Source: Treponema sp.
GTDB taxonomy: Bacteria > Spirochaetota > Spirochaetia > Treponematales > Breznakiellaceae
Assembly (NCBI GenBank): GCA_009781915.1
Contig: WQUW01000001.1
Location: forward strand, 225 to 64,224
DNA: 64,000 nucleotides
Direction: 5' to 3'
A program made the position numbers and the translations under genes. Under the pieces are notes generated by a model. The model saw only the letters and a list, made by a program, of their open reading frames with translations. It was not told the origin of the DNA and ran no database searches. Every line of letters starts with the position of its first letter. Positions within the stretch are counted from its first letter, which is position 1. Shown here piece by piece: positions 17,308 to 37,475 of the stretch.

Positions 17308-17844
17308 ATGAATAAGGAAGCAGGCAAAGAAGCCTTCGCGCGGGCGCTACAGGGGCGCGCCTTTGAGTATGCGGTTATCCCGGCCGGGGACATAGTCTTT
17401 TCCCCCGAATTGCTGAAAGCCTGCGAGTCAAACGTGTGCGGGAACTACGGCAAATCATGGAGCTGCCCGCCTGCCATCCAGCCGTTGGAAAAACAAAAAG
17501 AGAACATCACCGCCTTCTCCTTCGCCCTTGTTTTTACCACAAAATTCGACCTTGAAGACTCCTTCGATTATGAGGGGATGGTGGAGGCAAAGAAACGCCA
17601 CAGCCGGCTTACCAGCGAAATGCACGAGCGGTTTGGCAAAACCAACCCTGTCTACGGAGCGGGGGCGTGCGCAATCTGTACCCCCTGCGCCTATCCCCAG
17701 CCCTGCAATTTCCCTGAGAAAACATACCTGCCCGTCGAGGCCGCCGGAATTAACGTAACGGAACTCAGCCGGGCCGCGGGAATACGCTACAACAATGGCC
17801 CCAATACCGTTACCTATTTTTCCATAATCCTTTTCAACCAATAA
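17308..17844 (+). CDS. DUF2284-type predicted metal-binding protein
   Basis: CESNVCGNYGKSWSCPP motif and C-terminal CAICTPCAYPQPC. I chose the ATG at 17308 over the upstream alternative start at 17257. Confidence 0.65.
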   Translation: MNKEAGKEAFARALQGRAFEYAVIPAGDIVFSPELLKACESNVCGNYGKSWSCPPAIQPLEKQKENITAFSFALVFTTKFDLEDSFDYEGMVEAKKRHSRLTSEMHERFGKTNPVYGAGACAICTPCAYPQPCNFPEKTYLPVEAAGINVTELSRAAGIRYNNGPNTVTYFSIILFNQ

Positions 17845-17947
17845 CAAAATATTGCTGTTTTTAAGCAAAAGAGATTGTGTCGAAAATCGCGCGGCGGTGG
17901 TACAGTATCATCCATAGACTTCATATCAGGATTAGGAGGTTCGGTGT

Positions 17948-18592
17948 ATGGGCAATTTTGCGAATTCCTTTAACGAAATTTCGGAACTTCTGCAAAAGGG
18001 AAAGGCGAAGGACATTGTTGTTGCTGTCGAAAACGCCTTAAAAGAGGGCGCTGCCCCGGCGGATATTCTTGAAAAAGGTTTGATTTCCGGGATGAGCGTA
18101 ATCGGCGGGAAATTCAAAAATGGCGATGTTTTTGTTCCGGAAGTGCTGATAGCGGCGCGGGCAATGAACCACGCTTCCGCCACCCTTAAACCGGCCCTGA
18201 TGGAAGCCGGGGTAAAGCCTGTGGGCAAGGCCATCATCTGCACTGTGAAAGGCGACCTGCACGACATCGGAAAAAACCTTGTCAGGATGATGATAGAGGG
18301 CAAGGGTGTTGAAGTGCTCGACTTGGGAGTTGATTGCCCCAACGATAAAATTGTTGAGGCCGTGCGGGTGTCGGAAGCCAAGGTTGTGTGCCTGTCCGCC
18401 CTGCTTACCACTACCATGTTAAGCCAAAAGGAAGCGATTGACGCTCTGAAAACGGCGGGCCTTAGGGATAAGGTAAAGATAATGGTTGGCGGCGCGCCGA
18501 TAACCCAGAGCTTTGCCGATGAAATCGGCGCCGACGCCTATACTCCGGACGCTGCCTCGGCGGCGGAAGTGTGCCGGGCGTTTTACAACTAG
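17948..18592 (+). CDS. Corrinoid (cobalamin-binding) methyl-carrier protein, MtaC/MtbC-like
   Basis: N-terminal helical cap plus a Rossmann B12-binding domain with DxHxxG (GDLHDIG), SALLTTT and MVGGAP motifs; 214 aa. Confidence 0.9.
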   Translation: MGNFANSFNEISELLQKGKAKDIVVAVENALKEGAAPADILEKGLISGMSVIGGKFKNGDVFVPEVLIAARAMNHASATLKPALMEAGVKPVGKAIICTVKGDLHDIGKNLVRMMIEGKGVEVLDLGVDCPNDKIVEAVRVSEAKVVCLSALLTTTMLSQKEAIDALKTAGLRDKVKIMVGGAPITQSFADEIGADAYTPDAASAAEVCRAFYN

Positions 18593-20145
18593 GGTTTGTT
18601 CTGAACATACGCCTGCACAACAGTTCCGTTGTCTTACATACTGGCGCGGGGGAAACCATTTTGCTGGCCTGCGCGCGGGCCGGTGTTGTTCTGTCCGCGC
18701 CCTGCGGCGGGCGCCGCCGCTGCGGGAAATGCAGGGTGCGGCTTCTTGAAGGCCAGGTCAAAGGCGACACGCCGGACAGCGAAGGCTGGGTGCGGGCCTG
18801 CGTGGCGGTTGCGGTTTCGGACATCACTATCGCCATCCCCGCGAGCGAAGGAATAACCACAAGCGAAGTTACCGCCTGCGGGCGCTGTCCGGGTGTGCCT
18901 GCGGAAGGCCCTGATTCCCCGGCTGCCGTCCGCGCCGCATCAGTGGCTATTGACATCGGCACTACCACAGTCTCGGCCAGGCTTATTGATACCGCGTCTT
19001 CGCTGGTTTTGGATACAATCTCGGAATTAAATGACCAGCGGGCTTTCGGCGCTGATGTGATGAGCCGCATAGGGGCCGCGAAAAACGGCATGCTGCTTGA
19101 TCTTTTTACCGCCATTAACCGCCAGACAGAGCGGATTCTAACATCTTTTCTAACACGCTGGAATATTCCTCTGATCGAAAGGCTTGCCGTAAGCGGCAAT
19201 ACGGTAATGCTGCATCTTTTCCTTAACGTTGATCCGCGGGGCATGGGAGAATTGCCGTTTACCCCGGTATTCCTTGAAGAAAAAGAATTGCAGGGCCGCG
19301 ATCTTTCGCTTTCTGTGGAAACGGTAGTTGTGCTCCCCTCCATCGCGGCCTTTGTCGGGGGCGACATTACCGCAGGGCTTGCGGCGCTTGATATTCTTAA
19401 CAGCCCCGGCCCGTCCCTGCTAATCGACATAGGCACAAACGGCGAAATGGCCCTTTGCGATAACGGGACAATTCTTTGCTGCGCCACTGCCGCGGGCCCG
19501 GCTTTTGAGGGAGCGGAGATTTCCTGCGGGATGGGCGGAGTCAAAGGGGCAATCAGCGCCGTTGAGCTTGCGCCTTTAGGAGAGAGCGCTGTGTCGTTTA
19601 CCACTATCGGAAATGTCCCGCCTTTAGGCGTTTGCGGATCGGGACTTATTGACGCTGTGGCTGCCATGCTTAAACTTGGAATAATAGACGAAACAGGGCA
19701 TATGATGGACAGCGCCGGTTCGCGGGGCGGGTTTTACCTTGCGCCGGGTGTTTCAATCAGCGCGGGTGACATACGGCAATTCCAGCTTGCCAAAAGCGCC
19801 ATTCTTTCCGGCATCAAGATACTTTGCAAGAACGCAGGGGTTTTGCTTACGGAAATAAAAAATGTGTTTATTGCCGGGGGCTTTGGGTTTTTTATCAACA
19901 AGCAAAACGCGATAGATGCCGGAATCTTTCCGCCTGAGTTTGGCGCCGCGATTACCATTTGCGGAAATTTAAGCCTTCAAGGGGCCGAAGAATGTCTGGG
20001 CGCGAAGGAGTTCATGGACAAGTGCAAACAAGTAATTGACGTGTGCCGGGTTATCGATCTTGCCGCCGATCCGTCCTTTATGGACGAGTTCGCGGAGAAT
20101 ATGCTGTTTGATATCAGTCAGGAAGCAAAACACCATGCCGGTTAA
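18571..20145 (+). CDS. Reductive activator of corrinoid proteins (RACo/AcsV-like: 2Fe-2S ferredoxin plus ASKHA ATPase)
   Basis: N-terminal plant-type ferredoxin cysteines (APCGGRRRCGKCRV); ASKHA phosphate motifs (AIDIGTTTV, LLIDIGTNGEM). The GTG start at 18571 is uncertain and overlaps the corrinoid protein gene. Confidence 0.8.
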   Translation: MPGVLQLGFVLNIRLHNSSVVLHTGAGETILLACARAGVVLSAPCGGRRRCGKCRVRLLEGQVKGDTPDSEGWVRACVAVAVSDITIAIPASEGITTSEVTACGRCPGVPAEGPDSPAAVRAASVAIDIGTTTVSARLIDTASSLVLDTISELNDQRAFGADVMSRIGAAKNGMLLDLFTAINRQTERILTSFLTRWNIPLIERLAVSGNTVMLHLFLNVDPRGMGELPFTPVFLEEKELQGRDLSLSVETVVVLPSIAAFVGGDITAGLAALDILNSPGPSLLIDIGTNGEMALCDNGTILCCATAAGPAFEGAEISCGMGGVKGAISAVELAPLGESAVSFTTIGNVPPLGVCGSGLIDAVAAMLKLGIIDETGHMMDSAGSRGGFYLAPGVSISAGDIRQFQLAKSAILSGIKILCKNAGVLLTEIKNVFIAGGFGFFINKQNAIDAGIFPPEFGAAITICGNLSLQGAEECLGAKEFMDKCKQVIDVCRVIDLAADPSFMDEFAENMLFDISQEAKHHAG

Positions 20146-21427
20146 ACATGACCGCTGGTACTTGAAAGAGGTTCTCGATCTTGAACAGCTAAAAAAACTA
20201 TTCAAGCATTTTTCAATAATCACAAACATAGATGTAGCGCTCTTTGATTTTGCGGGCCGTGAAATCCTCGCTGTCAGAAAAGAAAATTCCGTTTGCCAGT
20301 TCGCGAAAAACGGGCCCAAATGCCGGGAGCATATTTCATCAGGAAGTTTGCGCGCCTCGGAGCTTGGCGAACCCTACATTTCCGCCTGCGGCTGCGGTCT
20401 TATTATGTGCTTTTCCCCCATTATGTACAAAGAACGGCTTATTGGTTCCATTGCCTGCGGGCCGACGGTGCTTTGGGATGCTGATGAAGTGGCGATGAAG
20501 GAATTCATGGAAAAAACCAAAGATATGGGCATTCATGTTGACATTGGCGAACTGTTTCATTCAATTACTTCGTGTACGTGTACAAACATGACCAGTTCCG
20601 CGCAGATTTTATTTATAATTGTTAACAGCCTGACCAAAGAGCACAGCGTATACCTCAATCAGAGGGCGCGCATTACCGAACAGCAGGCCAAGATCGCCGA
20701 ATTGATCATCGGCCAAAAGAACGCCGCCGGAACAAAACTAAAAAAGGAAATCCGTTCTACCGGCCCTGGTTATCCCATTGAAAGGGAAAAGGAACTTATT
20801 GTTTGCGTACAAAACGGAAATATAGAGCAATCGAAGAAAATATTAAATATTCTTTTAGGAGAGATTTTTTCTTTTGCCGACGGCAACCTTGACGCAATCA
20901 GAGTGCGCCTTTTTGAACTAAACGCCTTTTTCTCCCGTGCCGCGGTGGAAACAGGCGCGCCCATGTCCGACATAAATGAAATCGCCGTTAACTCGTTTAA
21001 TATTATCCATGATGATTTGGATTTTGGGCAGATTTGTTTCCTTGCCAGCCAGACGATGGAAGAATTTGTCCGCCTTATAGGCCGCAACCGCACCCAAAAA
21101 AAGATAAGCGAATATCTTTCCCGGGCTGTCGATTACATGGCGCTTAACTACACGGAAGAATTGACCCTTAGAAAGGTGGCTGACGCTGTTTTTATTAGCT
21201 CTTTTTATTTGAGCCACTTATTCCGCAAGGAGATGAACACCACTTTCTCGGATCATCTTTGTAAAATCCGCATAGATAATGCCAAGGCTTTTTTGAAAAA
21301 TGAAAGGAACCCAAGGATTCAGGAGATTGCGGAGAAAACCGGATTTAACGATCCCAATTATTTCGCTAAATCTTTTAAGAAGATGGTTGGTATAGCGCCC
21401 CGGGAGTACAAGAATTTTTTCAGGTGA
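20135..21427 (+). CDS. PocR sensory domain / AraC-family transcriptional regulator
   Basis: N-terminal PocR-like region (ITNIDVALFDFAGREI...CQFAKNGPKCREH...YISACGCGLIMCFSPI); C-terminal AraC HTH (FISSFYLSHLFRKEMNTTFSDHL...GFNDPNYFAKSFKKMVGIAPREY). The ATG at 20135 overlaps the RACo stop. Confidence 0.85.
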   Translation: MPVKHDRWYLKEVLDLEQLKKLFKHFSIITNIDVALFDFAGREILAVRKENSVCQFAKNGPKCREHISSGSLRASELGEPYISACGCGLIMCFSPIMYKERLIGSIACGPTVLWDADEVAMKEFMEKTKDMGIHVDIGELFHSITSCTCTNMTSSAQILFIIVNSLTKEHSVYLNQRARITEQQAKIAELIIGQKNAAGTKLKKEIRSTGPGYPIEREKELIVCVQNGNIEQSKKILNILLGEIFSFADGNLDAIRVRLFELNAFFSRAAVETGAPMSDINEIAVNSFNIIHDDLDFGQICFLASQTMEEFVRLIGRNRTQKKISEYLSRAVDYMALNYTEELTLRKVADAVFISSFYLSHLFRKEMNTTFSDHLCKIRIDNAKAFLKNERNPRIQEIAEKTGFNDPNYFAKSFKKMVGIAPREYKNFFR

Positions 21428-21450
21428 TTATTCAAACAAGATAGTACAGA

Positions 21451-21471
21451 TTTTGAGCAATATGATTAATG
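21451..21471 (+). promoter_or_regulatory. Conserved 21-nt motif TTTTGAGCAATATGATTAATG upstream of TRAP operon 1 (candidate operator or promoter element)
   Basis: A 20-of-21 identical copy (TTTTGAGCAATATAATTAATG) lies at 28507-28527, in the same orientation, upstream of TRAP operon 2. Confidence 0.5.
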
Positions 21472-21577
21472 ATTTCTTGATATTCTGTGTGACAAAGACC
21501 TGAATCGATGTTACTATAGAGGTACAAAAAATAATCGTAGCGGTTATTACATTTTTTCTTGTTATGGAGGGAAGACT

Positions 21578-22582
21578 ATGTTGGCAAGGTCAAAAATTGC
21601 AGGTAGCATTCTTGTAGTGCTGATTGCTAGTTTCATCACATCTTGCGCGAGGGACGACAGGATCATTATGAGGGTAGGTGATGTTTGGAGCGCAAGCCAC
21701 CCCAATTCCTACAGCATTATTAATGTTTTCAAACCTATGATTGAAGAAGGGACAAACGGTGCGATTTATGTAGAAATTTATGGTGCGGGAGCCCTTGGCA
21801 GCGAACAGACCTTATGGGACAGCGTACGCAGTGGCGCGTTAGAGGTTGGTATTTTGGGTACCTTGATAAGCAGCGAATACAGGCCCATGGTCATCGCTGA
21901 GTGGCCATTTTTGTACAGAGATGTGGAACACGCTAAAAGCGTATGGACTGGCAGCTTTGCCGAAGAGTTCATGAGTGATTTCAATTCCGCATTTTCTACT
22001 CAGATGAATCTTCTGGCAGTGGGCCCCAATAGCGCGCGTACATTTACTTCAAATGTTCCGCTCAGAAGTATACATGACTTCAGTGGGCAAAGGTTTCGTG
22101 TACCTGCGACGCAAGTACATGTGGGAATCGTTAACGACCTTGGCGCCAGTTCCCATATCATACCGCTTACAGACCTGTTTAGTTCAATGCAGACAGGAGT
22201 TGTTGATGGTCAGGATAATGGAATGGTTACCGTGTTAAGCGAGAGGTTTCACGAAGTGCAGAGGTATCTGCTTGAAACAAACCATCTTGTGGCAATAATG
22301 ACGACCGTTATAAATGCACCATTCTTAAACAGTCTGCGCCCGGAATATCAACAAGTTGTGCGGGATGCCGCAAGGGCAGCGGCAGTTTCTGCGTGGGAAG
22401 CCTATATCGTGTCCCTTGACAATGACCGTCAAACTCTCAGAAACTTGGGCGTTACCGTTACGCAGGTCTCTGATAGCGAAAGACTCCAATTCATTGAGGC
22501 CATTCAGCCGACCCTTTCTCATCTTCATGCAGAAAACCCCTGGGCACAGGAGGTTCTGACCAGAATAGGAAACGTGAGGTAA
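21578..22582 (+). CDS. TRAP transporter substrate-binding lipoprotein (DctP family), paralog 1
   Basis: Lipobox ITSC. DctP-type motifs (LGSEQTLWDSVRSGALE, GPNSARTFTS, RFRVPA, GVVDGQDNG). Confidence 0.88.
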   Translation: MLARSKIAGSILVVLIASFITSCARDDRIIMRVGDVWSASHPNSYSIINVFKPMIEEGTNGAIYVEIYGAGALGSEQTLWDSVRSGALEVGILGTLISSEYRPMVIAEWPFLYRDVEHAKSVWTGSFAEEFMSDFNSAFSTQMNLLAVGPNSARTFTSNVPLRSIHDFSGQRFRVPATQVHVGIVNDLGASSHIIPLTDLFSSMQTGVVDGQDNGMVTVLSERFHEVQRYLLETNHLVAIMTTVINAPFLNSLRPEYQQVVRDAARAAAVSAWEAYIVSLDNDRQTLRNLGVTVTQVSDSERLQFIEAIQPTLSHLHAENPWAQEVLTRIGNVR

Positions 22583-22653
22583 TGATACACTAGAGATACA
22601 AAAAATAACCGGTAGCGGTTGTTATATTTTTTCGTGTTTTATGGAGGAAGACT

Positions 22654-23655
22654 ATGTTGGCAAGATCAAAAATCGTAGGTAGCATTCTTGTAATGCTGAT
22701 TGCTGGTTTCGTCACGTCTTGCACGAGGGACGATAGAATCATCATAAGAGTGGGCGATGTTTGGAGCATAAGCCACCCAAATTCTTACAGTATTGCTAGT
22801 GTTTTCAAGTCCATGGTTGAAGACGGGACAAACGGCGCTATTTACGTTGAGGTTTATCACTCGGGCGCCCTTGGCAGTGAGCAGACCCTTTGGGACAGCG
22901 TACGCAGCGGTGTTGTGGAAATGGTTCTTGTAGGCAGTGTCCTGGCAACTGAATATCCGCCCCTTTTGATATCCGACTGGCCGTTTCTGTACAGGGATGT
23001 CGAACACGCCATGAAAGTGTGGACAGGCGAGTTTGCCGATGAGTTTAAAACGAACTTCAACGCTCATTTCCCCACAATGACTCTTTTGGCATTGGGCCCC
23101 AACAGCGCGCGTACGTTTACATCTCGTCTTCCACTCAGAAGTATGGATGATTTCGTCGGGCAAAGAATTCGTATGCCTGCAAATCCCATACACAATGGCA
23201 TAGTCAACGATCTTGGCGCCAGCTCTCAGGTAATACCGCTTACGGATCTGTTTACCTCCCTACAGACCGGAGTTGCTGACGGTCAAGACAATGGAATGGT
23301 TACCGTGCTGAGCGAAAGGTTTAATGAAGTGCAAAGCTATTTATTTGAAACAAATCATATGATAGCGATAATGCCGACTGTTATAAATACGCAATTTCTA
23401 AACAGTTTAAGTCAGGAGCATCAGCAAATTATCCGGAATGCGGCAAGGGCGGCATCTATATCAGCATGGGAAAATTATCTTCTTTCTCTCGATTCTGATC
23501 GTGAGAGGCTTAGAGAACTTGGCGTTACTGTAACCCAGCTCGATGAAGCTGAAAGAGAAAGAATAATTCAGGCGATTCAGCCGACTCTTGCCATGCTCCA
23601 CGAGCAAAATCCTTGGGCACAGGAAGCCATTGAGAGAGTGGGAAATATAAGATGA
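22654..23655 (+). CDS. TRAP transporter substrate-binding lipoprotein (DctP family), paralog 2 (tandem duplicate)
   Basis: About 80% identical to paralog 1 over the first 60 aa (hand count). The duplicated 5' leader includes the RBS. Confidence 0.88.
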   Translation: MLARSKIVGSILVMLIAGFVTSCTRDDRIIIRVGDVWSISHPNSYSIASVFKSMVEDGTNGAIYVEVYHSGALGSEQTLWDSVRSGVVEMVLVGSVLATEYPPLLISDWPFLYRDVEHAMKVWTGEFADEFKTNFNAHFPTMTLLALGPNSARTFTSRLPLRSMDDFVGQRIRMPANPIHNGIVNDLGASSQVIPLTDLFTSLQTGVADGQDNGMVTVLSERFNEVQSYLFETNHMIAIMPTVINTQFLNSLSQEHQQIIRNAARAASISAWENYLLSLDSDRERLRELGVTVTQLDEAERERIIQAIQPTLAMLHEQNPWAQEAIERVGNIR

Positions 23656-24164
23656 TGAATACACTCATTGCCCGGCTGTTCCGAGTAATTGAGATAATGA
23701 TAGCCGTGTTCCTCGGACTGATGATTCTGCTTGTGTTTATGAACGTGGTAGCGCGTTACGTGTTCAATATCGGCTTTGTGTGGTCTGAGGAAATAGCGCG
23801 GCTTTGTTTTATATTTCTTGTATATTTGGGCTCTATAGAAGCCATGCGGGATAATCGCCACCTTATGGTTGATACAGTACTGCTCAAACTTCCCAAGGTG
23901 TTGCGGGTCGGTGTCTATGCTCTTACTCAGGTGGGCATTATATGGGTGATGTCTGTGCTTCTCCGCGGTGCATGGAGGGTTGTGCTTATGACTAGGCACA
24001 ATGTATGGGTTGCCACCGGTTTCCCTGCGCATTTCGTACATTTCTTTGGCTGCATACTTGCCGCTTCCATCATGCTTATAGGGGTGATGAATCTTGTCCG
24101 CCTTTTTGTATTCAAAATGCCGGTGGAAGAATTAATTCGGATGCGGGGCGGCTCTGGCTCGTAA
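23652..24164 (+). CDS. TRAP transporter small permease (DctQ family)
   Basis: 170 aa with four predicted TM helices and the N.V.RY.F.....W.EE..R pattern (NVVARYVFNIGFVWSEEIARL). The start overlaps the upstream stop. Confidence 0.85.
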   Translation: MMNTLIARLFRVIEIMIAVFLGLMILLVFMNVVARYVFNIGFVWSEEIARLCFIFLVYLGSIEAMRDNRHLMVDTVLLKLPKVLRVGVYALTQVGIIWVMSVLLRGAWRVVLMTRHNVWVATGFPAHFVHFFGCILAASIMLIGVMNLVRLFVFKMPVEELIRMRGGSGS

Positions 24165-24203
24165 TGGCGGCGGTGAGAAAGCGCTGCTGGAAAGGGAACG
24201 TTA

Positions 24204-25550: not shown

Positions 25551-25551
25551 A

Positions 25552-25596
25552 ACCGCCCTACCGGCATTTCTGCTGGCAGGGCGGTCTGTTTTTTTA
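25552..25596 (+). terminator. Intrinsic terminator after TRAP operon 1 (also at the 3' end of the convergent URO-D-like gene)
   Basis: Hairpin 25552-25564 / 25573-25585 (8 bp, one mismatch, then 4 bp including a GU pair; 8-nt loop), followed by a T7 run at 25589-25595. Confidence 0.7.
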
Positions 25597-26865: not shown

Positions 26866-26974
26866 GTTAATCTCCTGAATACTATTTTTTCGCCGAAGCG
26901 CCTTCTTCTGCAAATTATACAGCATATCCAATAAAAACGATGGTCATGGAAAATGGTATTTACAATTCCAAATT

Positions 26975-28354
26975 CTACATATCGTATTTTTTGGGATCCA
27001 GTTTATCACACTCGCCGATAATATTTTCGGTAAACTCGCCTACATCGGCGGGCAATTCTTCCACAGTGTTGGCAATATTTTCAAGCCACATTAACTCTTT
27101 ATCGTCCAGCGCAAGGCTTCCCTGATCATGCGCTTTCTGGATATGAGACAACGCAAGCGCCGCCGCTTTTTTTGCCCTGGGGTAATACCCGTCAATCTTT
27201 ACAAGCTCTTTTGAAATATCAAGTGCGATATCGGGACGCAAAACATACGCCTGCGGGTCAAGTTTTGAGTCGCTGTCTGCGTGTAAATCACGAAGCAGTA
27301 GAGCAGTTTGCTGTCCCCTTGCGGACGCTTCATTCATTAGGCGGCAGTCATACACGAGCTGTTCAAATGACACGGTAGGAGCCATGCCGCCCAGCAGCTT
27401 AATGTTCTGGATGGATTCGTTGCTCCAAATATCGGCCACGCACGCGGCGATATTTCCGACCGGAGAAAGATGGGCGCACGCGGCTGTCCCGCCTTCCATA
27501 GAGATGGGCGTACCTGTAATGGCTTTTATGTAGACCCCCTCGTAGCCGCAATCCTTGTGCGGGCCTTTCGCGCCGCACTCAATAGCCACAAGGCTTCTGA
27601 CAGCCGTAACCACCCTGACCGCCGCCGCGAACACACGTGGAATGTAGTTCCTGTCAGCAAGCACCATTGCGGTATTGCCAAAACCGCAAGCGGTATCTCC
27701 CGCGGCGATTGTTCCCGTCCTTGCGGCGATGGCGGCAATTTCAGTCCAAAGTTTATTCATGTCGGCACATCCAAGAACCGACAGGGCGAATATAGATTTG
27801 GCAATGTCGCAATACATTATGGCATCATCGTGGACTTCCTTGCCGCCCACTGACTCCACCGCGAGAAAATCGGCCCCGGCTTTGGCGCAGCCTTCGAAAG
27901 TTTTTAGCATGGCATCCCAATGCCAGCCGCGCCACATGTGCTCAAGGCCGCTGCCTTCGCGTATGTCGTTAGGCGTAATCCTGACAGCTCCCTTTATGCC
28001 GTGCTTTACTTCATATTCTTTGACTATGCCCACAACTGTTTTGCATACTTCAATGCCCCATTCGGGATTTTCGGTCATTGGCGGCAGGGTTTCAATTTCC
28101 GCCACAAAGCCCGGAACATACAGTTCCTTCGCCCTCTCGCAAATGCCGGTAATAATTTCCGTATAATTGCGGATTACATCCGGCATGGTGTCCTTTGTAA
28201 TCTGCATGGTTGGAAGCGTAAAGTTTACCTCAGGGTAAACCGTACCGCCGCCGATAACCATTCCGTTGGTCAGAGCCACAGGGTACTTGGCCCTGCCAAA
28301 AACAAAGGCGTTAATGTCTGTATAAACCGTTTCGTTAAATTGTTTTTTTTGCAT
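26975..28354 (-). CDS. mtaB: MtaB-family methyltransferase (homolog of methanol:corrinoid methyltransferase)
   Basis: 460 aa from ATG 28354, with an AAGGAAG RBS. Long collinear similarity to Methanosarcina MtaB as I recall it: ESVGGKE, GTIAAGDTACGFGNTAM, GPHKDCGYEGVYIKAITGTPISMEGGTAACAH, DPQAYVLRPD. Confidence 0.8.
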   Translation of the reverse strand: MQKKQFNETVYTDINAFVFGRAKYPVALTNGMVIGGGTVYPEVNFTLPTMQITKDTMPDVIRNYTEIITGICERAKELYVPGFVAEIETLPPMTENPEWGIEVCKTVVGIVKEYEVKHGIKGAVRITPNDIREGSGLEHMWRGWHWDAMLKTFEGCAKAGADFLAVESVGGKEVHDDAIMYCDIAKSIFALSVLGCADMNKLWTEIAAIAARTGTIAAGDTACGFGNTAMVLADRNYIPRVFAAAVRVVTAVRSLVAIECGAKGPHKDCGYEGVYIKAITGTPISMEGGTAACAHLSPVGNIAACVADIWSNESIQNIKLLGGMAPTVSFEQLVYDCRLMNEASARGQQTALLLRDLHADSDSKLDPQAYVLRPDIALDISKELVKIDGYYPRAKKAAALALSHIQKAHDQGSLALDDKELMWLENIANTVEELPADVGEFTENIIGECDKLDPKKYDM

Positions 28355-28506
28355 GGCGGCTTCCTTTTCTGATGTAAATATATAGATATGGTAGTCACAG
28401 CGCGACGGAAGTTTCATTAATGAATTTGCTGATTTAAGGTAATCTTTTGCTATTTCGTTTGCCTTGACTAATTGGCTTTTGGTGGTATATCGCAAAGCAT
28501 TACTTG

Positions 28507-28527
28507 TTTTGAGCAATATAATTAATG
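28507..28527 (+). promoter_or_regulatory. Second copy of the conserved 21-nt motif, in the divergent mtaB-like / TRAP operon 2 intergenic region
   Basis: TTTTGAGCAATATAATTAATG is 20-of-21 identical to 21451-21471. It lies about 74 nt upstream of the dctP-like ATG at 28601. Confidence 0.5.
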
Positions 28528-28600
28528 TTTTTCCTTATTAACCTGTCAAAATGGGGAAGATGCGCAAAGAGCATGATATTTAATTTCAAGGAGATGACGA

Positions 28601-29599
28601 ATGAAGATTACATGGAAAAACATAGCGATTATACTTATTGTCTTTAGTGCTTTTCTGTTTGGTTCGTGCAGAAGATCGGCTTCTGATGGGCCTATTGTTT
28701 TAAGAGTTGCCAGCGCCGCGCAAATCGGAGACAGCCTGGATCAAGCTTTGAATTTTTTTGTACAGGAACTTAGCGCTAGAACTGATGGCGCGATTACCGG
28801 AGAGGTTTTTTCCGCGTCGCAGCTCGGGCATCACAGCGACTACATTGCCGGATTGCAGATGGGCAGTATCCACGTAGCGGAAATTACAGCCGCGGTGCTT
28901 TCGACAGTAGCGCCCAGGTTTGCCATTTTTGACCTGCCGTATATTTCCGAATCGCCCCAGGCTCTTTTTGACATCCTTGACGGAGAAGCAGGCGATATTC
29001 TTACCCGGCACATTATGGACGTGGCTCAAATTCGCCCAATCGGCTGGATGGTACGTACTCCCCGGCACGTGTACAGCAGCGCAGGCCCCATTCGCACCGT
29101 GGAAGATTTTCGCAACCTGAGGATTCGCACCATGCAAAGTGCCCCCATGATCAGGGGCATGGAACTCCTTGGAGCATTTCCAAGCGCCATCCCTACCGCT
29201 GAACGTTATACGGCTTTGCAAACCGGCGTGGTGGATGCTGCCGAAAATAATGTTGCCGAGATATGGAATACCAATGAATGGGAGGTAACCAGGTATCTTT
29301 CCAAAACAGCCCACTTGGTAGCGCCTAATGTAATATCAATCGGAACAAGATTTTTGGAAAGCCTTTCGGAAGAACACCAAAGGATCATAATTGAGGTTGG
29401 CAGAGAAGCAGGTATGCTTGCGACCCGGTTGGAGATAGAGGGAGAGCGGCCATTCGAAGAATTGCTTGCCACCCAGGGGGAAATGATTATCAACGAAATT
29501 GAAGATATGAGTAGCTTTGTAACAGCTCTCGCTCCGCTTCACCATGAATGGGCACCTGTTATCGGCGCTGATCTTATCGCTCTGTTCAGGGGTGAGTGA
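28601..29599 (+). CDS. TRAP transporter substrate-binding lipoprotein (DctP family), system 2
   Basis: Lipobox LFGSC. DctP-type motifs (RIRTMQSAP, TGVVDAAENN). Confidence 0.85.
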   Translation: MKITWKNIAIILIVFSAFLFGSCRRSASDGPIVLRVASAAQIGDSLDQALNFFVQELSARTDGAITGEVFSASQLGHHSDYIAGLQMGSIHVAEITAAVLSTVAPRFAIFDLPYISESPQALFDILDGEAGDILTRHIMDVAQIRPIGWMVRTPRHVYSSAGPIRTVEDFRNLRIRTMQSAPMIRGMELLGAFPSAIPTAERYTALQTGVVDAAENNVAEIWNTNEWEVTRYLSKTAHLVAPNVISIGTRFLESLSEEHQRIIIEVGREAGMLATRLEIEGERPFEELLATQGEMIINEIEDMSSFVTALAPLHHEWAPVIGADLIALFRGE

Positions 29600-29609
29600 A
29601 AATTCTGTC

Positions 29610-30131
29610 ATGGAAAAGTTTACTCATATTGTTTTTGATGTGATACTTGGCCTGTTTATAAAAATAATCGGCATAGCCATGGTTCTTTCGGTTTTGTTGC
29701 AAATCGCTTCCCGGAACCTGAACATTGCTGGCATACTCTGGACTGAGGAGATGGGGCGATTGACCTTCATTTGGTTTTGCTTCCTTGCCACGGCGGCCGC
29801 CTTTGAAAAGGGAAAACATGTCTCGATCGATTATTTTTACATGAAAATGAATAAACTTTTCCGGACAATCTGCGATTATCTTGGCCTTGCCTTGATCCTT
29901 ATGTTTACGATGATAATAGTTGTCGAAGGGATACGAATACTGGAGTTTGTTTCCATTCAACATTCCCCGGTTATGCGGCTTTCGTTTTTCTGGTTTTATC
30001 TGTCGGTACCTGTCGGAATGGGGTTTATTTTGCTTTTCGCGATACTGTCTTTTGTAAAGTTGATATTAACGACCAAAAACGGCGGCTCAATACCTGCAAG
30101 TGGGGATAATCCTTCTTCGGTGGACGGGTAG
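29610..30131 (+). CDS. TRAP transporter small permease (DctQ family), system 2
   Basis: I chose the ATG at 29610 (MEKFTHIVFDVILG...). Four TM helices; WTEEMGRLTFIWFCFL motif. Confidence 0.8.
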   Translation: MEKFTHIVFDVILGLFIKIIGIAMVLSVLLQIASRNLNIAGILWTEEMGRLTFIWFCFLATAAAFEKGKHVSIDYFYMKMNKLFRTICDYLGLALILMFTMIIVVEGIRILEFVSIQHSPVMRLSFFWFYLSVPVGMGFILLFAILSFVKLILTTKNGGSIPASGDNPSSVDG

Positions 30132-30140
30132 GGGAACACT

Positions 30141-31439
30141 ATGACTGAAAATATACTGCTTCTTGTCGGTGTTGTTTTTCTTTTGCTTGTTGCGCTAATG
30201 CTTATTAAAGTACCAATCTCTTTTGCTTTGGGAATTGCCACTTTGGGAGGGGTTTGGCTCGTGGGGGATTTGCCCATTATGGTGCTGGCCCAACGGATGT
30301 TTGTCGGGCTTGATTCGTATACCCTGCTGGCGATACCGCTTTTTATGCTTACCGGGCAGATCATGGCTATGGGCGGCGTAACCAGGGACTTACTAAATCT
30401 TTCCATGGTGTTTGTAGGATGGTTGCGCGGCGGACTTGCCTACGTGAATATTGTGTCAAGCATGATATTCGCCGCGTGTAATGGCGTGGCCTCAGCTGAT
30501 ACAGCGTCACTTGGCTCTGTGCTTATTCCGGCAATGGTCAAGAAAGGATACGAGAAGGACTTTACTGTAGCGGTTACCGCAACGTCATCCCCCCTTGGCA
30601 TAATATTCCCCCCAAGTGTTCCCATGGTACTTTACGCAGTCGCTTCAGGTACATCAATAGGAAGGCTTTTTCTTGGTGGAATTATTCCCGGTTTCTTGTC
30701 AGGTTTCGCGTTACTTGCAGTAGCTGGGGCAATTGCCAGAAAGCGTAATTATCCGGCAGAAGAGCGCATCACGTTCAAAGAAAGCGTCAGGATAGCGGTT
30801 CGCTGTATTCCCGCCCTTTTTACCGTGGTAATTATTGTTGGCGGTATATTTTCGGGATTTTTTACGCCTACTGAAGCTGCCGGTGTGGCATGTCTTTGGG
30901 CTACGTTATTGGGATTTTTCTATTACAAAGAACTTAAAATAAAGAAAATGCCAGAACTGATACACCGGACTGCTTTGACTGTAGGGCTCGTGGCGCTTAT
31001 GATTTCCGCCGCAAGCGCTTTGGGCTGGTTTCTTACGAGCCAGGGCGTTGCCCGGGCCATTGCTGATGGATTATTGGCGGTTACTGACAACAAGATAATT
31101 ATCTTGTTGCTCATCAACTTGGTGCTGTTATTTGTTGGCCTCTGGATGGATCTTGCCCCGGCAATGACCCTTTTTACGCCCATATTGTTGCCAATTGCAA
31201 TTGCGTTTGGCGTGGATCCGGTTCATTTTGGAATTATTATGGTTGTAAACATGGCCATCGGGCTTTTTACGCCGCCGGTGGGAGTATGCCTTGTTATTGC
31301 TTGTGGTATCGCTGGAGCGCCCATAACCAGCGTCCTTAAGGCTTTTGTTCCGTTCTTCCTTGTAATGATTGTAATTCTTCTTTTTATCACGTTTGTTCCG
31401 CAAATAAGCCTTTTTTTGCCGAACTTGCTGATGAACTAA
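30141..31439 (+). CDS. TRAP transporter large permease (DctM family), system 2
   Basis: 432-aa polytopic protein with AIPLFMLTGQIMAMGGVTRD and GVASADTASLGSVLIPAM motifs. Confidence 0.9.
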   Translation: MTENILLLVGVVFLLLVALMLIKVPISFALGIATLGGVWLVGDLPIMVLAQRMFVGLDSYTLLAIPLFMLTGQIMAMGGVTRDLLNLSMVFVGWLRGGLAYVNIVSSMIFAACNGVASADTASLGSVLIPAMVKKGYEKDFTVAVTATSSPLGIIFPPSVPMVLYAVASGTSIGRLFLGGIIPGFLSGFALLAVAGAIARKRNYPAEERITFKESVRIAVRCIPALFTVVIIVGGIFSGFFTPTEAAGVACLWATLLGFFYYKELKIKKMPELIHRTALTVGLVALMISAASALGWFLTSQGVARAIADGLLAVTDNKIIILLLINLVLLFVGLWMDLAPAMTLFTPILLPIAIAFGVDPVHFGIIMVVNMAIGLFTPPVGVCLVIACGIAGAPITSVLKAFVPFFLVMIVILLFITFVPQISLFLPNLLMN

Positions 31440-31464
31440 TGTACGCAAAGGAGCAGGTTCTTAT

Positions 31465-32679
31465 ATGGCTGAAACACCACGCGAGCGGGTACTAAAGACA
31501 ATAAACCACGTAGAGCCGGAGGTTCCCGCTATTGATTTCGGCTCTACTACTTCCAGCGGAATAAGTATTTTTGAATACATTGATCTGAAGGAATATCTTG
31601 GCATAAACCAGACTGAGCTTCCTGTTTTGTTTGATATATTTTTAATGCTCGCCGACCCATGCGCGTCGATGATTGAGCGTTTTGGTGGAGATATTATCCA
31701 GTTAAAACGACTTGCCCCAAACTTCGGGATTAAACTTTGCGATTGGAAACAATGGACTTTGCATAATGGTAAAACCGTGCTGGTTCCCGGCGGCTTTAAC
31801 CCCAAGCCTGATGCCGAAGGCGGCCTTGTTATTGAAAACGCGCAAGGCATTGCCGTAGCGCGTATGCCCAGTAAGGGATATTATTTTGATTTGATTCATT
31901 TTCCCTATAAAAACATTGAAGAAGCCGATGAAATTGATAAACTTGAGTTATGTGGTGTTTTGGATGAGGAAATCAACTATCTGTCCAAAGAAGGTAAACG
32001 GCTTTTTGAGGAAACCGATAAAGCGGTAGTGTTTTCATTCGGCGGGCGGCTTGTCGAAGCCGGGTTATTTGGATGGGGCTTTGAGGAATTTCTTGTTAAC
32101 TTGCTTGCAAATCCTGATATGATACACCGGTATTTTGAAAGACTTACGGATATATACATCAATGACATTGATCGTATATTACAGCAATGCAACAATTATA
32201 TTGATATATTCCGGTTTGTTGATGATCTTGGAACTCAAAATTCCCTGTTAATGTCTCCCGCTGTTTACCGGGAAATGGTTAAACCCTATCATAAAAAAAT
32301 GTTTCAGTTTATCAAGAAAAAATATCCAAAGCAGAAAATAGCGACCCATTGCTGCGGCGCTATATACCCGGTGATTCCCGATCTTATTGATGCCGGGATA
32401 GACATTATTAACCCTGTGCAGATTTCTGCCAGCGGTATGGATCCGCTGCAGCTTAAAAAGGAATTTGGGAAAGATATTGTGTTTTGGGGCGGGGCGGCAA
32501 ACATGCAAGCTACCGTGCCTTACGGAACACTTGACGAGATCAAAAAAGAAACCGGAACCCTTACAGAAATATTTATGAAAGATGGAGGGTTCATATTTAA
32601 TCCTGTCCATAATATCCAGGCAAACATCGCCCCGGAGAAAATAGCCGCGATTTATGACGTAGCGCTGAGGTATCGCTAG
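31465..32679 (+). CDS. URO-D family protein, MtaA/methyltransferase-like, long form (paralog 2)
   Basis: 404 aa with an AAAGGAG RBS. The N-terminus RERVLKTINHVEPEVPAIDFGS parallels RKRVLDAVNHRQPDRIPLDFGS of paralog 1. It also has ATHCCGAIYPVI, DIINPVQ and FWGGAANMQ. Confidence 0.75.
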   Translation: MAETPRERVLKTINHVEPEVPAIDFGSTTSSGISIFEYIDLKEYLGINQTELPVLFDIFLMLADPCASMIERFGGDIIQLKRLAPNFGIKLCDWKQWTLHNGKTVLVPGGFNPKPDAEGGLVIENAQGIAVARMPSKGYYFDLIHFPYKNIEEADEIDKLELCGVLDEEINYLSKEGKRLFEETDKAVVFSFGGRLVEAGLFGWGFEEFLVNLLANPDMIHRYFERLTDIYINDIDRILQQCNNYIDIFRFVDDLGTQNSLLMSPAVYREMVKPYHKKMFQFIKKKYPKQKIATHCCGAIYPVIPDLIDAGIDIINPVQISASGMDPLQLKKEFGKDIVFWGGAANMQATVPYGTLDEIKKETGTLTEIFMKDGGFIFNPVHNIQANIAPEKIAAIYDVALRYR

Positions 32680-36478: not shown

Positions 36479-36518
36479 TGTGTTTGTTATTCCCGGCAAG
36501 GCGGCTTATACTTGTATC

Positions 36519-37409: not shown

Positions 37410-37475
37410 CCCCCGGCATTCGACCACGAGCATTTAACTACGGCATTTCCCCCAAAGCGCCATCGCCGTTACGGC

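Follow-up and report, generated by a model that had tools for sequence, protein, structure and literature searches.

A Treponema island joining TRAP transporters, a corrinoid module and two long UroD-superfamily proteins, with a possible role in sugar-acid demethylation

Introduction

Genes for corrinoid-dependent methyl transfer lie interleaved with two TRAP transporters in a 64-kb stretch of DNA from an uncultured Treponema (hereafter the window; all gene coordinates are positions in it). Do transport and methyl transfer belong together here and, if so, what is imported and which enzyme would take its methyl group? The original prediction, made from the sequence, had proposed uptake of a methylated or methoxylated organic acid followed by corrinoid-dependent demethylation. 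Our analysis supports it in part: the genes and the link between TRAP transport and corrinoid chemistry stand, while the place given to MtaB as a TRAP-linked novelty does not. The island suggests an undescribed oxygen-free route for stripping methyl groups from plant-derived sugar acids, and we found no paper describing a combination of sugar-acid TRAP transporter, long UroD-type protein (UROD) and corrinoid protein.

Results

Corrinoid module

Pfam matches back every gene of the predicted set at its position. The module opens on the plus strand with a DUF2284 protein (17308–17844; Pfam DUF2284, 144 bits), a predicted metal-binding accessory whose family adjoins RACo and PocR in three MtaB loci (L092, L096 and L141). 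It is followed by the only corrinoid (B12) carrier protein of the window (17948–18592, plus strand; Pfam B12-binding_2 and B12-binding), in whose translation the predicted DxHxxG motif, GDLHDIG, can be read directly. In a Treponema MAG locus (L001), its identity is 76% to the corrinoid protein encoded upstream of RACo and 65% to the one encoded downstream of MtaB. The RACo-type ATP-dependent reductive activator of the corrinoid protein (18571–20145, plus strand) matches Fer2, RACo_middle and RACo_C_ter in Pfam and an AcsV-like NCBIfam model with 333 bits, and its translation contains the cysteine-rich motif typical of 2Fe-2S ferredoxins. Overlapping its 3' end is the gene of a PocR-sensor/AraC-type regulator (20135–21427, plus strand; PocR with 93 bits, HTH_18 and HTH_AraC), an overlapping order that is also found in locus L168.

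Regarding the lipoprotein upstream of the module (14584–15510, plus strand), which had been called BtuF-like, it is a Peripla_BP_2 protein (Pfam, 110 bits), and the NCBIfam BtuF model gives 114 bits against a cut-off of 234. Its B12 role is putative because no permease or ATPase gene lies alongside, and no cobalamin riboswitch was found at this gene; its membership in the system is doubtful.

MtaB and its relatives

The MtaB-family methanol:corrinoid methyltransferase (26975–28354, minus strand) matches the Pfam MtaB model over its full length with 563 bits. Compared with MtaB of M. barkeri (2i2x), it scores 305 bits and conserves Glu164, Cys220 and Cys269, that is, all three zinc ligands of the known methanol enzyme, so that methanol stays the simplest substrate. 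Judged by its sequence, this MtaB is an ordinary methanol methyltransferase and not the unusual part of the island. Its homologues number more than 6000, with identities of 74–87% among the best, and we inspected the neighbourhoods of 80 relatives with 73–87% identity. Their company consists of MtaC, PocR/AraC and CobW: a corrinoid protein gene follows mtaB in 29 of the 80, and PocR/AraC is near it in 18 to 23. A DctP gene adjoins mtaB only once (L141), which speaks against MtaB as the TRAP-linked novelty, and a long UROD is nearby in one to five loci. Relatives of the MtaB clade also lie repeatedly near Rrf2, Cys/Met PLP enzymes and cysteine-synthase-like genes.

TRAP transporters and their likely cargo

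As predicted, the island encodes two TRAP transporters with three DctP-type binding proteins, each component being matched by Pfam DctP, DctQ or DctM. The first system, on the plus strand, comprises the lipoprotein DctP1 (21578–22582; 204 bits), the solute-binding protein DctP2 (22654–23655; 205 bits), the small membrane subunit DctQ1 (23652–24164; 72 bits) and the large membrane subunit DctM1 (24204–25550; 342 bits). DctP1 and DctP2 are tandem paralogues with 70% identity, and the best solved relatives of DctP1 are 4pbq, 4nn3, 4p47, 4mmp and 4xfe. DNA repeat families D1 and D2 span the dctP1/dctP2 pair. The second system, also on the plus strand, contains the lipoprotein DctP3 (28601–29599; 185 bits), DctQ2 (29544–30131; 91 bits) and DctM2 (30141–31439; 390 bits). 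The DctQ match begins at residue 46 of the DctQ2 ORF, whose real start is probably nearer 29610.

DctP3 is of the uronate-binding type. Its best solved relatives are 4x8r, 4pf8, 4ovq, 4p1l and 4n8y. Its similarity to uronate binders (126–136 bits) is modest enough to leave the ligand prediction weak. The ligands of 4X8R and 4N8Y are glucuronate and galacturonate, respectively (PMC11668362). Since the closest solved relatives of DctP3 bind these uronates and acid-sugar catabolic genes surround the orthologous operons, sequence comparison points to sugar acids, more than to aromatic acids, as the imported solutes. The proposed import of an organic acid is thus retained and refined to sugar acids, with aromatic acids becoming less likely.

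A motif common to the island promoters

A 25-nt operator-like motif, TTTTGAGCAATATGATTAATGATTT, lies at 21451–21475 (plus strand), 103 nt upstream of dctP1. Its second copy (28507–28531, plus strand) falls in the divergent mtaB/dctP3 intergenic region, upstream of both genes at a distance of 70 nt from dctP3 and 153 nt from mtaB. The copies at the two dctP promoters are identical and are the only matches in the 64 kb, with 0 expected by chance (100 shuffles). Upstream of mtaB, the closest relative (L087) has kept a copy that differs at one position. The motif was also recovered as repeat family D13. Because parts of the island recur in unrelated genomes and this motif occurs only in its promoter regions, the island is more than a chance arrangement. 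Its block from 20135 to 32679 has a GC content of 0.463 versus 0.54, which suggests an acquisition separate from that of the corrinoid protein and RACo genes.

Two long UROD proteins

The novelty of the island lies in its two long UROD proteins of approximately 400–420 aa, members of a large and uncharacterised UroD-superfamily branch. UROD1 (25594–26865, minus strand; 423 aa; Pfam URO-D, 64 bits) is encoded downstream of mtaB and convergent with dctM1. UROD2 (31465–32679, plus strand; 404 aa; URO-D, 73 bits, partial) closes the dctP3Q2M2 operon following a gap of 25 nt, and this operon diverges from the mtaB-UROD1 pair. In both proteins the match to the URO-D profile is confined to the C-terminal half. 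The N-terminal half, where HemE has its catalytic arginines and aspartate, gives no match, and the hemE model reaches 21 bits against a cut-off of 303.

UROD1 and UROD2 are 32% identical and have the HCC and H motifs of a zinc-type site in common. Residues H309, C311 and H396 (UROD1 numbering) are invariant and align with the zinc ligands of MtaA, with the difference that the long proteins have H-x-C...H where MtaA has H-x-C...C, the third ligand being His and not Cys. The AlphaFold model of UROD1 (pLDDT 92) has UroD and MtaA as its nearest folds, followed by MetE. The zinc motif resembles that of MtaA and MetE, which act on the acceptor side by methylating thiols, whereas the known UroD-type O-demethylases have another zinc motif or none. 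CdmB, one such O-demethylase, does not need zinc (PMC13222342).

Conservation of the TRAP and UROD genes

Synteny had been chosen beforehand as the check on the proposed link, and it is conserved for the TRAP and URO-D-like genes. The order DctPQM-(AP_endonuc_2)-UROD2 is kept in four unrelated contigs (L167, L168, L172 and L173), with UROD2 being 57–66% identical across them; in the two checked for the transporter (L167 and L168), DctP3 and DctM2 orthologues are 54–61% and 61–65% identical, respectively. In L168, a RACo-PocR/AraC-corrinoid protein-long URO-D cluster lies around 4 kb from the TRAP-UROD2 operon. Relatives of UROD1, with 83% and 70% identity, are likewise found beside TRAP or TAXI-TRAP genes (L170/L171, L007 and L006). 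The orthologous operons are flanked by genes for KDG kinase, KDPG aldolase, a GarR-type reductase, a split transketolase, rpe, deoC and a DHDPS-family protein. These comparisons suggest a functional link between TRAP transport and methyl transfer of the corrinoid type.

We also examined 80 loci anchored on UROD1-like genes. A corrinoid protein is encoded within 10 kb of the long UROD in 26 of them, and in 15 its gene abuts the UROD gene in the same orientation; the association extends across phyla. Other genes nearby are RACo (14 loci), homocysteine methyltransferase (15), DUF1638 (16), MtaA-like URO-D (16), Sugar_tr (12) and MtaB (5); L047 is an example operon. Elsewhere the family is accompanied by LacI, ROK and GntR regulators, glycosidase-like genes and sugar transporters, and it is diverse and multi-copy, with up to five matches in one locus.

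The prediction had tied the question of the methyl acceptor to the lack of a pterin-binding methyltransferase. Pfam scans of most ORFs of at least 150 aa (a few overlapping accepted genes left out) confirmed this absence and detected no other acceptor-side enzyme in the window. By itself this is no obstacle, since the likely partner on the acceptor side in related clusters of other phyla is a homocysteine methyltransferase (S-methyl_trans) or an MtaA-like enzyme encoded there.

Proposed model and alternative explanations

Our main reading, to which we give a probability of around 45%, is that the island forms one regulon for importing O-methylated sugar acids and passing their methyl groups to a corrinoid protein shared with MtaB. 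The PocR/AraC protein would be its probable controller. The two TRAP systems would import O-methyl acid sugars, the best single guess being 4-O-methyl-glucuronate from xylan, and each would be paired with UROD1 or UROD2 as a substrate-specific methyltransferase (MT I). The His-x-Cys...His zinc site would hold the ether oxygen while the methyl group moves, by Co(I) attack, to the shared corrinoid protein; the products would be methyl-Co(III) and a free sugar acid that enters ordinary catabolism. MtaB would load the same carrier from methanol, and RACo, possibly with DUF2284, would re-reduce the oxidised cofactor. The methyl group would leave through an MT II encoded elsewhere in the genome, towards tetrahydrofolate or homocysteine. 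We infer both the MT I role of the long UROD proteins, with their use of the window's corrinoid protein, and the identities of substrate and acceptor. Several points weigh against this reading: aliphatic methyl ethers are more difficult to demethylate than aryl ethers, the zinc motif resembles that of the acceptor-side enzymes MtaA and MetE, several TRAP-UROD loci have no corrinoid protein nearby, the ligand prediction for DctP3 is weak, and Pfam scans of the window found no acceptor-side enzyme, no uronate catabolic genes and no alpha-glucuronidase. Modular corrinoid systems in which one carrier serves substrate demethylation and methionine synthesis are known, aerobes included (PMC12478193).

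One could argue that the long UROD proteins occupy instead the MtaA position, as acceptor-side MT II enzymes passing methyl groups from MtaB and methanol to tetrahydrofolate, a thiol or a TRAP-imported compound. The mtaB-UROD1 pair does mimic an mtaB...mtaA arrangement, the zinc site is homologous to the one with which MtaA and MetE activate thiols, and MtaB, corrinoid protein and long UROD occur together in four loci (L013, L032, L046 and L073, where MtaB is 45–51% identical to that of the window). However, most corrinoid-linked loci of the family are devoid of MtaB, and MtaB relatives typically lack a neighbouring long UROD. Those corrinoid-linked loci already encode S-methyl_trans and a 336-aa MtaA-like URO-D as acceptor-side candidates, which leaves the long UROD as the only donor-side candidate; besides, the family is multi-copy, diverse and associated with different transporters and sugar regulators, as is typical where enzymes are substrate-specific. 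We therefore consider an MT II role unlikely. Somewhat less likely again is that the long UROD proteins are corrinoid-independent acid-sugar enzymes, such as decarboxylases or methanol-releasing enzymes, that serve the TRAP systems, with the corrinoid protein, RACo, DUF2284, PocR and MtaB forming a separate, ordinary methanol module that is merely adjacent or consumes the released methanol. The parent fold is that of a decarboxylase, the GC difference fits two modules, and in L167, L172, L173 (three of the four TRAP-UROD2 loci), L170 and L006 the TRAP and UROD genes are found with AP_endonuc_2, transketolase, GarR-like reductase, rpe, deoC and DHDPS, and no corrinoid protein is encoded within 8–10 kb. 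Against this stand the corrinoid genes abutting or close to long UROD in the 80-locus sample, the co-location repeated in L168 and the 25-nt motif that the TRAP promoters share with the promoter region of mtaB. The lack of fit to HemE, with an N-terminal half that misses the URO-D profile, and the invariant H-x-C...H, a zinc signature of the methyltransferase branch, also argue against it.

The least probable of the explanations weighed here is that the substrates are S-methyl carboxylates, such as methylmercaptopropionate and related methylthio acids, demethylated by long UROD at its zinc-thiolate site. MtsA and MtpA, UroD-family enzymes of Methanosarcina, carry out S-methyl demethylation at such a site. 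The zinc motif is of the thiol-binding type, carboxylates are TRAP cargo, homocysteine methyltransferase is common in the family clusters, and the Rrf2 and cysteine-related neighbours of the MtaB clade would fit. Nevertheless, genes for sugars and acid sugars, not for sulfur metabolism, prevail in the neighbourhoods, the third zinc ligand is His in place of Cys, and DctP3 resembles uronate binders.

Gene content and layout of the island

Pfam scans recovered every gene listed in the original prediction of a TRAP-linked corrinoid methyl-transfer island, essentially at the coordinates assigned to it. On the plus strand, a DUF2284 gene (17308-17844) is followed by the genes of a corrinoid protein (17948-18592), with the GDLHDIG cobalamin-binding motif in its translation, of a Fer2/RACo reductive activator (18571-20145) and of a PocR/AraC regulator (20135-21427), which overlaps the end of the RACo gene. 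The same strand carries dctP1, dctP2, dctQ1 and dctM1 (21578-25550). On the minus strand, mtaB (28354-26975) is followed by UROD1 (26865-25594), the first of two long URO-D-like genes. Finally, dctP3, dctQ2, dctM2 and the second long gene, UROD2, occupy 28601-32679 on the plus strand, divergent from mtaB, with a gap of 25 nt between dctM2 and UROD2. The window holds two complete DctP/DctQ/DctM sets, one of them with two DctP genes, and a sole corrinoid protein gene, located 8.4 kb from mtaB and 7-13 kb from the UROD genes.

The corrinoid protein has the PF02607 cap, the PF02310 Rossmann domain and the DxHxxG motif, and scored 201.5 bits against TIGR02370, slightly under the cut-off of 215.3. 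The 2Fe-2S ferredoxin, middle and ASKHA ATPase domains of RACo were all found with Pfam. UROD1 and UROD2 are 32% identical to each other, and DctP1 and DctP2 are tandem paralogues with 70% identity. At the DNA level, this dctP duplication (21570-23376) appears as repeat families D1 and D2, 77-83% identical; it takes in the ribosome-binding region, with a short hairpin separating the copies, and results in two binding proteins per single QM pair. In the public record, where the island proteins are MCL2379979-84 of a Treponema sp. MAG, MtaB (26975-28354) is labelled 'hypothetical protein' (MCL2379980.1) and both UROD proteins just 'methyltransferase'. The JGI gene call of MtaB has a 54-codon N-terminal extension, giving 513 aa versus 459 aa.

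Regarding missing functions, the reported absence of a pterin-binding methyltransferase from the window was confirmed, and we found in it neither a recognisable MtaA or pterin-type acceptor-side methyltransferase (MT II) nor any uronate pathway gene. An Rfam scan of the whole window gave zero matches and, therefore, no cobalamin riboswitch. The BtuF-like lipoprotein that had been proposed is only partly sustained: a Peripla_BP_2 protein is present, but it scores under the BtuF cut-off and is without transporter partners, so we left it outside the core system.

A motif common to both TRAP promoters

The 25-nt sequence TTTTGAGCAATATRATTAATGWTTT is found in exactly two copies in the 64 kb, where none is expected by chance. 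The first (21451-21475) lies 103 nt upstream of dctP1, and the second (28507-28531) precedes dctP3 by 70 nt, within the stretch common to the divergent mtaB promoter. Since the motif is at both dctP promoters and its second copy is shared with the mtaB region, there is direct sequence evidence for one regulator of both TRAP operons, which would probably include mtaB-UROD1; the adjacent PocR/AraC protein would be the obvious candidate. The exact core of the motif was absent from all 173 loci searched. With mismatches allowed, we found one convincing copy and one weak one. The former, with a single mismatch, lies upstream of mtaB, in the same relative orientation, in the locus of the closest mtaB relative (L087). 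The latter, in a TRAP-UROD2 locus (L168:16283), is AT-rich, has four mismatches to the 19-nt core and lies between the PocR/AraC and corrinoid protein genes; it could be an equivalent operator or a chance match, with 15 four-mismatch matches to the core in 2.4 Mb. Promoter and terminator consensus scans over 14-33.5 kb gave no more terminators than chance and modestly more promoters, so we did not use these predictions.

MtaB and its relatives

MtaB gave an end-to-end match to PF12176 (563 bits, profile positions 2-459 of 460) and 305 bits in phmmer against the MtaB of M. barkeri (2I2X). Glu164, Cys220 and Cys269 of the latter, the zinc ligands in the 2I2X structure, are all conserved in the phmmer alignment to 2i2x_A, within the segments VES, DTxC and KDCGYE. 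The score against the NCBIfam model MtaB_Meth (408 bits) is under the equivalog cut-off of 720; as this model was built on methanogen sequences, such a value assigns the protein to a bacterial clade and is compatible with the function. Among more than 6000 homologues, the best (74-87% identical) are from Oscillospiraceae, Defluviitaleaceae, Christensenella and Treponema, so that the named relatives belong to Clostridia as well as Treponema. Many close relatives derive from a small group of JGI metagenomes, probably termite-gut samples.

We then looked at 80 metagenomic loci anchored on MtaB relatives with 73-87% identity (L087-L166). A corrinoid protein gene was present in 32 of them, 29 times directly downstream as the classic mtaB-mtaC pair, together with PocR/AraC regulators (18-23 of 80), CobW GTPases (15/80) and RACo (6/80). 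Long UROD genes appeared in at most five of the 80, and a TRAP gene in a single one, L141, where a corrinoid protein-MtaB-DctP run (L141:4606-7486) is accompanied by divergent DUF2284-RACo-PocR/AraC genes. With its full profile match, intact zinc ligands and classic neighbourhoods, MtaB is not the unusual part of the island, and methanol would be its simplest substrate. The idea of MtaB as a TRAP-linked enzyme was not supported: action on a TRAP-imported substrate is unlikely, given the synteny and the intact methanol site.

L141 is the only other contig found with a DctP lipoprotein gene straight after a corrinoid protein-MtaB pair; its gene content matches that of the window, in a different order. 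Another MtaB relative is part of a PocR-corrinoid protein-RACo-MtaB-corrinoid protein-short URO-D operon, and yet another stands alone, with Rrf2 and a Cys/Met PLP enzyme as neighbours. Over the 80 loci, Rrf2 was found in nine, Cys/Met PLP enzymes in seven and cysteine-synthase-like PALP genes in five, and the CobW, Rrf2, PLP and PALP flanks give hints of a link of this clade to zinc delivery and sulfur amino-acid metabolism. Besides, more divergent MtaB homologues (45-51% identical to that of the window) are clustered with both a corrinoid protein and a long UROD in L013, L032, L046 and L073, which belong to Opitutales, Verrucomicrobia and Acidobacteriota MAGs, hosts in which MtaB was unexpected.

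The long UROD proteins form a large family

The URO-D profile matched only the C-terminal halves of the two long proteins (positions 161-346 of UROD1 and 101-343 of UROD2). Against the hemE model TIGR01464, UROD2 scored 21 bits versus a cut-off of 303, and UROD1 gave no match. Matches to the MtaA-family model were weak and partial (E about 1e-12), with 47.7 and 47.1 bits for the two proteins against TIGR01463 (MtaA/CmuA; cut-off 235.4). A sequence search of solved structures with both proteins returned only marginal matches (best E = 0.16). An AlphaFold model of UROD1 built with 37 homologues reached a pLDDT of 92, and its nearest folds in Foldseek were UroD, the methylcobalamin:coenzyme M methyltransferase MtaA (4ay7/4ay8) and then MetE, with E values of 1e-10 to 1e-11 and target-normalised TM-scores of ~0.65-0.66 for the 4ay7/4ay8 and UroD structures. 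The predicted model hence has a UroD-type (beta/alpha)8 fold. Its N-terminal half, unmatched by the URO-D profile, has a beta-rich stretch at about residues 76-136, which may explain part of the extra length.

H309, C311 and H396 are invariant across the family alignment, UROD2 included. In the HMMER alignment, H309 and C311 fall on the H-I-C zinc ligands of 4ay7, and H396 takes the place of the third ligand, the Cys of PGCG. As judged from the alignment, this predicted His-x-Cys...His metal site is of the kind that marks the methyltransferases of the superfamily rather than the decarboxylases. A profile search against representatives of 50%-identity clusters matched 1796 of them at E <= 1e-30 and 7220 at E <= 1e-10, and a genome scan gave at least 596 relatives. 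The hosts are Acidobacteriota, Planctomycetota, Verrucomicrobiota, Sphaerochaeta and other spirochaetes, Bacteroidales, Cytophagales and Clostridia, and the current annotation is 'uroporphyrinogen decarboxylase family protein' or 'methyltransferase'.

Long UROD genes are kept beside transporters and sugar genes

A DctP-DctQ-DctM-(AP_endonuc_2)-UROD2 operon was found in four independent contigs (L167, L168, L172 and L173), with UROD2 identities of 57-66%. Where compared (L167 and L168), the transporter subunits are orthologous as well (DctP 54-61%, DctM 61-65%). UROD1 relatives also stand beside TRAP genes: one at 83% identity (L170/L171) converges on DctPQM in precisely the arrangement of the window and adjoins rpe, deoC, an aldo-keto reductase and a DHDPS-family gene, and others at 70-71% in Planctomycetota are next to DctP/DctM or a TAXI-type TRAP. 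The predicted co-occurrence of TRAP and URO-D-like genes thus holds in relatives. On the 3' side of the TRAP-UROD2 operon, we detected a split transketolase in three of the four loci and a dehydrogenase in two, the L168 copy scoring as a GarR-type 2-hydroxy-3-oxopropionate reductase, while a GntR regulator accompanies the operon in three. In L168, KDPG aldolase and KDG kinase precede the operon, and ~4 kb downstream a RACo-PocR/AraC-corrinoid protein-long URO-D cluster reproduces the module of the window, with the same RACo/PocR overlap. In Mahella australiensis, a UROD2 relative with 49% identity has a ROK regulator on one side and, on the other, a sugar ABC system that includes a glycosidase-like gene. 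Several of the TRAP-UROD loci had no corrinoid protein gene within 8-10 kb.

To place these loci in the UROD1-like family, we took the census of its best 80 genome loci. A corrinoid protein gene was within 10 kb of the long UROD in 26 of the 80, and directly adjacent on the same strand (gap <= 64 nt or overlap) in 15. The other neighbours were DUF1638 and short MtaA-like URO-D proteins (16 loci each), S-methyl_trans homocysteine methyltransferases (15), RACo (14), MFS sugar transporters of the Sugar_tr family (12), LacI regulators (8-11) and MtaB proteins 45-51% identical to that of the window (5). A Solibacteraceae operon (L047:9950-17366) has, in this order, a GHL6 glycosidase-like gene, MFS, long UROD, corrinoid protein, Sugar_tr, S-methyl_trans, DUF1638, a URO-D of 336 aa and RACo. 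An unbiased Pfam census, taken on 127 neighbouring ORFs of 21 corrinoid-containing loci (the number, out of 26, that size limits allowed), gave the same picture and added GalT, melibiase and Met_synt_B12; the pterin-binding family was absent from its 25 commonest families.

Operons like that of L047 were also seen in L026, L030, L071, L083 and others, from Acidobacteriota and other phyla, and many of their hosts are not strict anaerobes. In gene content, these operons look like a split methionine synthase supplied by a possibly sugar-borne methyl donor.

The transported solutes are most likely sugar acids

The best solved relatives of DctP3 were 4X8R, 4PF8, 4OVQ, 4P1L and 4N8Y (120-136 bits). 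The structures 4X8R and 4N8Y contain glucuronate and galacturonate, respectively (PMC11668362). In DctP3's favour as a uronate binder, 4PF8, 4OVQ and 4P1L are uronate-bound as well. An Arg of DctP3 (RIRTMQS) and its AENN segment align with the uronate binders. This Arg is presumably the carboxylate-binding residue of TRAP binding proteins. For DctP1 and DctP2, the nearest solved relatives are a mixed set of acid-sugar binders, and the ligand prediction is weak. Both the DctP relatives and the acid-sugar genes around orthologous operons point to sugar acids as the most likely imports. Methoxylated aromatic acids were also considered and are less likely, as neighbourhoods and binding-protein similarity favour sugars. 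Hardwood and grass xylan bears 4-O-methyl-glucuronate. We infer this compound to be the most attractive single candidate, as a methyl-etherified uronate with a negative charge, abundant in xylan.

A possible role in the demethylation of sugar acids

The long UROD proteins could be donor-side methyltransferases (MT I) for O-methylated sugar acids supplied by their partner TRAP systems. The zinc bound by His/Cys/His would polarise the ether oxygen, the methyl group would pass to the Co(I) corrinoid protein, and the demethylated acid sugar would enter normal catabolism. MtaB would load methanol-derived methyl groups on the same carrier, RACo would repair the oxidised cofactor, and an acceptor-side enzyme encoded elsewhere would transfer the methyl group to tetrahydrofolate or homocysteine; for the latter, the family clusters in other phyla are suggestive and MtgBCDE (PMC12478193) is a precedent. 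We give this whole mechanism, with its shared carrier, a probability of roughly 45%.

One could argue that the zinc motif resembles that of thiol-methylating enzymes on the acceptor side, which is a weakness of the MT I assignment and would suit MtaA-like acceptor-side proteins acting as partners of MtaB. The scarcity of long UROD genes around MtaB relatives and their conserved place in TRAP operons speak for the donor side, and we consider the MtaA-like role unlikely. Aliphatic ethers are, besides, poor leaving groups, and the window is without an acceptor-side enzyme and without uronate pathway genes. Several TRAP-UROD loci are also without a corrinoid protein nearby, which would suit corrinoid-independent acid-sugar enzymes, such as decarboxylases or methanol-releasing ones, placed beside an ordinary methanol module. 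Set against these enzymes are the methyltransferase-type metal signature and the corrinoid protein genes that directly adjoin long UROD genes in other genomes, and such enzymes seem to us somewhat less probable still. Methylthio-carboxylates, as for MtsA and MtpA, would be substrates in keeping with a thiol-type zinc site, and sit poorly with the sugar genes and uronate-type binding proteins; we give them little weight.

Extending the MT I reading to the whole family is a bolder step. The long (~400-425 aa) His-x-Cys...His UroD-like proteins would then be the first cobalamin-dependent carbohydrate O-demethylase family, working without oxygen and with a corrinoid protein, on substrates such as 4-O-methyl-glucuronate from xylan or methylated galactose or fucose, with the methyl groups going to tetrahydrofolate or homocysteine. 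Polysaccharide degraders of many groups have such proteins (Spirochaetes, Clostridia, Acidobacteriota, Planctomycetota, Verrucomicrobiota and Bacteroidota). We regard this generalisation as doubtful. If true, the window would be a compact case, with TRAP uptake, two demethylases and MtaB methanol capture on one carrier.

When plant and algal sugars carry methyl ethers, their normal catabolism is blocked. Demethylases of this kind would partly explain the full use of methylated sugars, for instance those of xylan, by gut and sediment anaerobes, and would, in guts or soils for example, supply acetogenesis or methionine synthesis with extra methyl groups. They would also give a function to a large family annotated only as URO-D family protein or methyltransferase, and imply a wider cobalamin demand in polysaccharide-degrading phyla, including Acidobacteriota.

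Comparison with known systems

MtaB, the corrinoid protein, RACo, PocR/AraC and TRAP are of known kinds, and their logic is that of three-component corrinoid methyltransferase systems. The original prediction had presented the combination as unknown, and we found no description of it in the literature searched: neither the long UroD-like subfamily and its systematic pairing with TRAP or sugar transporters, nor the long UROD-corrinoid protein pairing across phyla, nor cobalamin-dependent demethylation of carbohydrates, including 4-O-methylglucuronate, is described there, and searches for MtaB with TRAP and for DUF1638 with homocysteine methyltransferase gave no account of the system of the window.

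As in the MtaB/MtaC/MtaA systems of methanogens and acetogens (2I2X), the window combines an MtaB of full length, its Glu/Cys/Cys zinc site intact, with a DxHxxG corrinoid protein and an ATP-dependent activator, and close relatives of its MtaB show the classic mtaB-mtaC pair. Unlike in those systems, the place of mtaC after mtaB is taken by a long UROD gene, there is no recognisable MtaA, and mtaB is flanked by TRAP operons and has a motif in common with them. The UroD-type TIM barrel is shared by the long UROD proteins with the UroD-superfamily MT I O-demethylases OdmB, VdmB, MtvB and MtoB and with the haloalkane enzyme CdmB, and so would be the scheme of an MT I that selects the substrate and is served by a separate corrinoid protein and an activator. 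The substrates of those enzymes are aryl methyl ethers or haloalkanes (PMC13222342, PMC10418091), for which no TRAP or sugar context is needed, and the superfamily has many uncharacterised clades (PMC13222342). The long UROD proteins differ from these enzymes in the MtaA-type H-x-C...H motif and the beta-rich region, a comparison made for OdmB, MtvB and CdmB by description only; no solved structure of that clade was among the sequence or fold matches.

Relative to MtaA, MtbA, MtsA and CmuA (TIGR01463; 4AY7), the C-terminal half aligns, the H-x-C zinc motif is kept and the TM-score is ~0.66, but the third ligand is His instead of Cys, the long UROD proteins are ~60-90 residues longer and their scores are far below the cut-off. 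The mlp clusters (PMC10418091) also have a corrinoid protein and a RACE-type activator without a tetrahydrofolate methyltransferase. Their Mlp proteins are ~30% identical to coenzyme M methyltransferases and linked to sulfur and selenium metabolism (Kountz and Balskus, PMC10418091), whereas the long UROD proteins are linked to TRAP and sugar genes. In type 1 mlp clusters, Mlp2 and Mlp3 go with a corrinoid protein and RACE; the URO-D-like proteins of the window, with their weak and partial matches to MtaA-family models, do not correspond to these Mlp proteins, and the mlp clusters are probably a different branch of the superfamily.

Similarly to MtgBCDE of marine bacteria (PMC12478193), the long UROD clusters of Acidobacteriota and other phyla join a putative donor-side enzyme, a corrinoid protein, S-methyl_trans, DUF1638 or Met_synt_B12, and a RACo/RamA-type activator. 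In MtgBCDE, a donor-side enzyme of the MttB/MtgB type (pfam06253) takes the methyl group from glycine betaine (PMC12478193), whereas here the donor side would be a long UroD-type protein in a sugar context, and the window has no homocysteine module. The only sugar demethylase found in the literature searched is the P450 for 6-O-methyl-D-galactose, an oxygen-dependent oxidation that releases formaldehyde (PMC6292453). It answers the same physiological need, removal of a methyl ether that blocks sugar catabolism, with an unrelated fold and cofactor and, being oxygen-dependent, would be unworkable in an anoxic gut.

Base composition and other features of the window

The block from PocR/AraC to UROD2 (20135-32679) has a GC content of 0.463, compared with 0.54 in the flanks and the rest of the window and with 0.53-0.55 in the adjoining DUF2284, corrinoid protein and RACo genes. 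This difference suggests a horizontal acquisition of the TRAP/MtaB/UROD block, which would have been set beside a pre-existing corrinoid module. The remainder of the window is made up of housekeeping genes (PolA, MiaA, PGI, lysine biosynthesis, AcrB and GlnS-type genes). On the 3' side of UROD2, a short ORF (<100 aa; ~32925-33100, plus strand) starts with MKNPFKLFGIVALTAIIGFSMTACGGG, has a lipoprotein-type signal peptide and heads towards a ComFB gene on the opposite strand. Further on (36480-40756), two ORFs of 309 aa (+) and 619 aa (-) without a Pfam match adjoin an FGE-sulfatase-like gene of the formylglycine-generating enzyme family.
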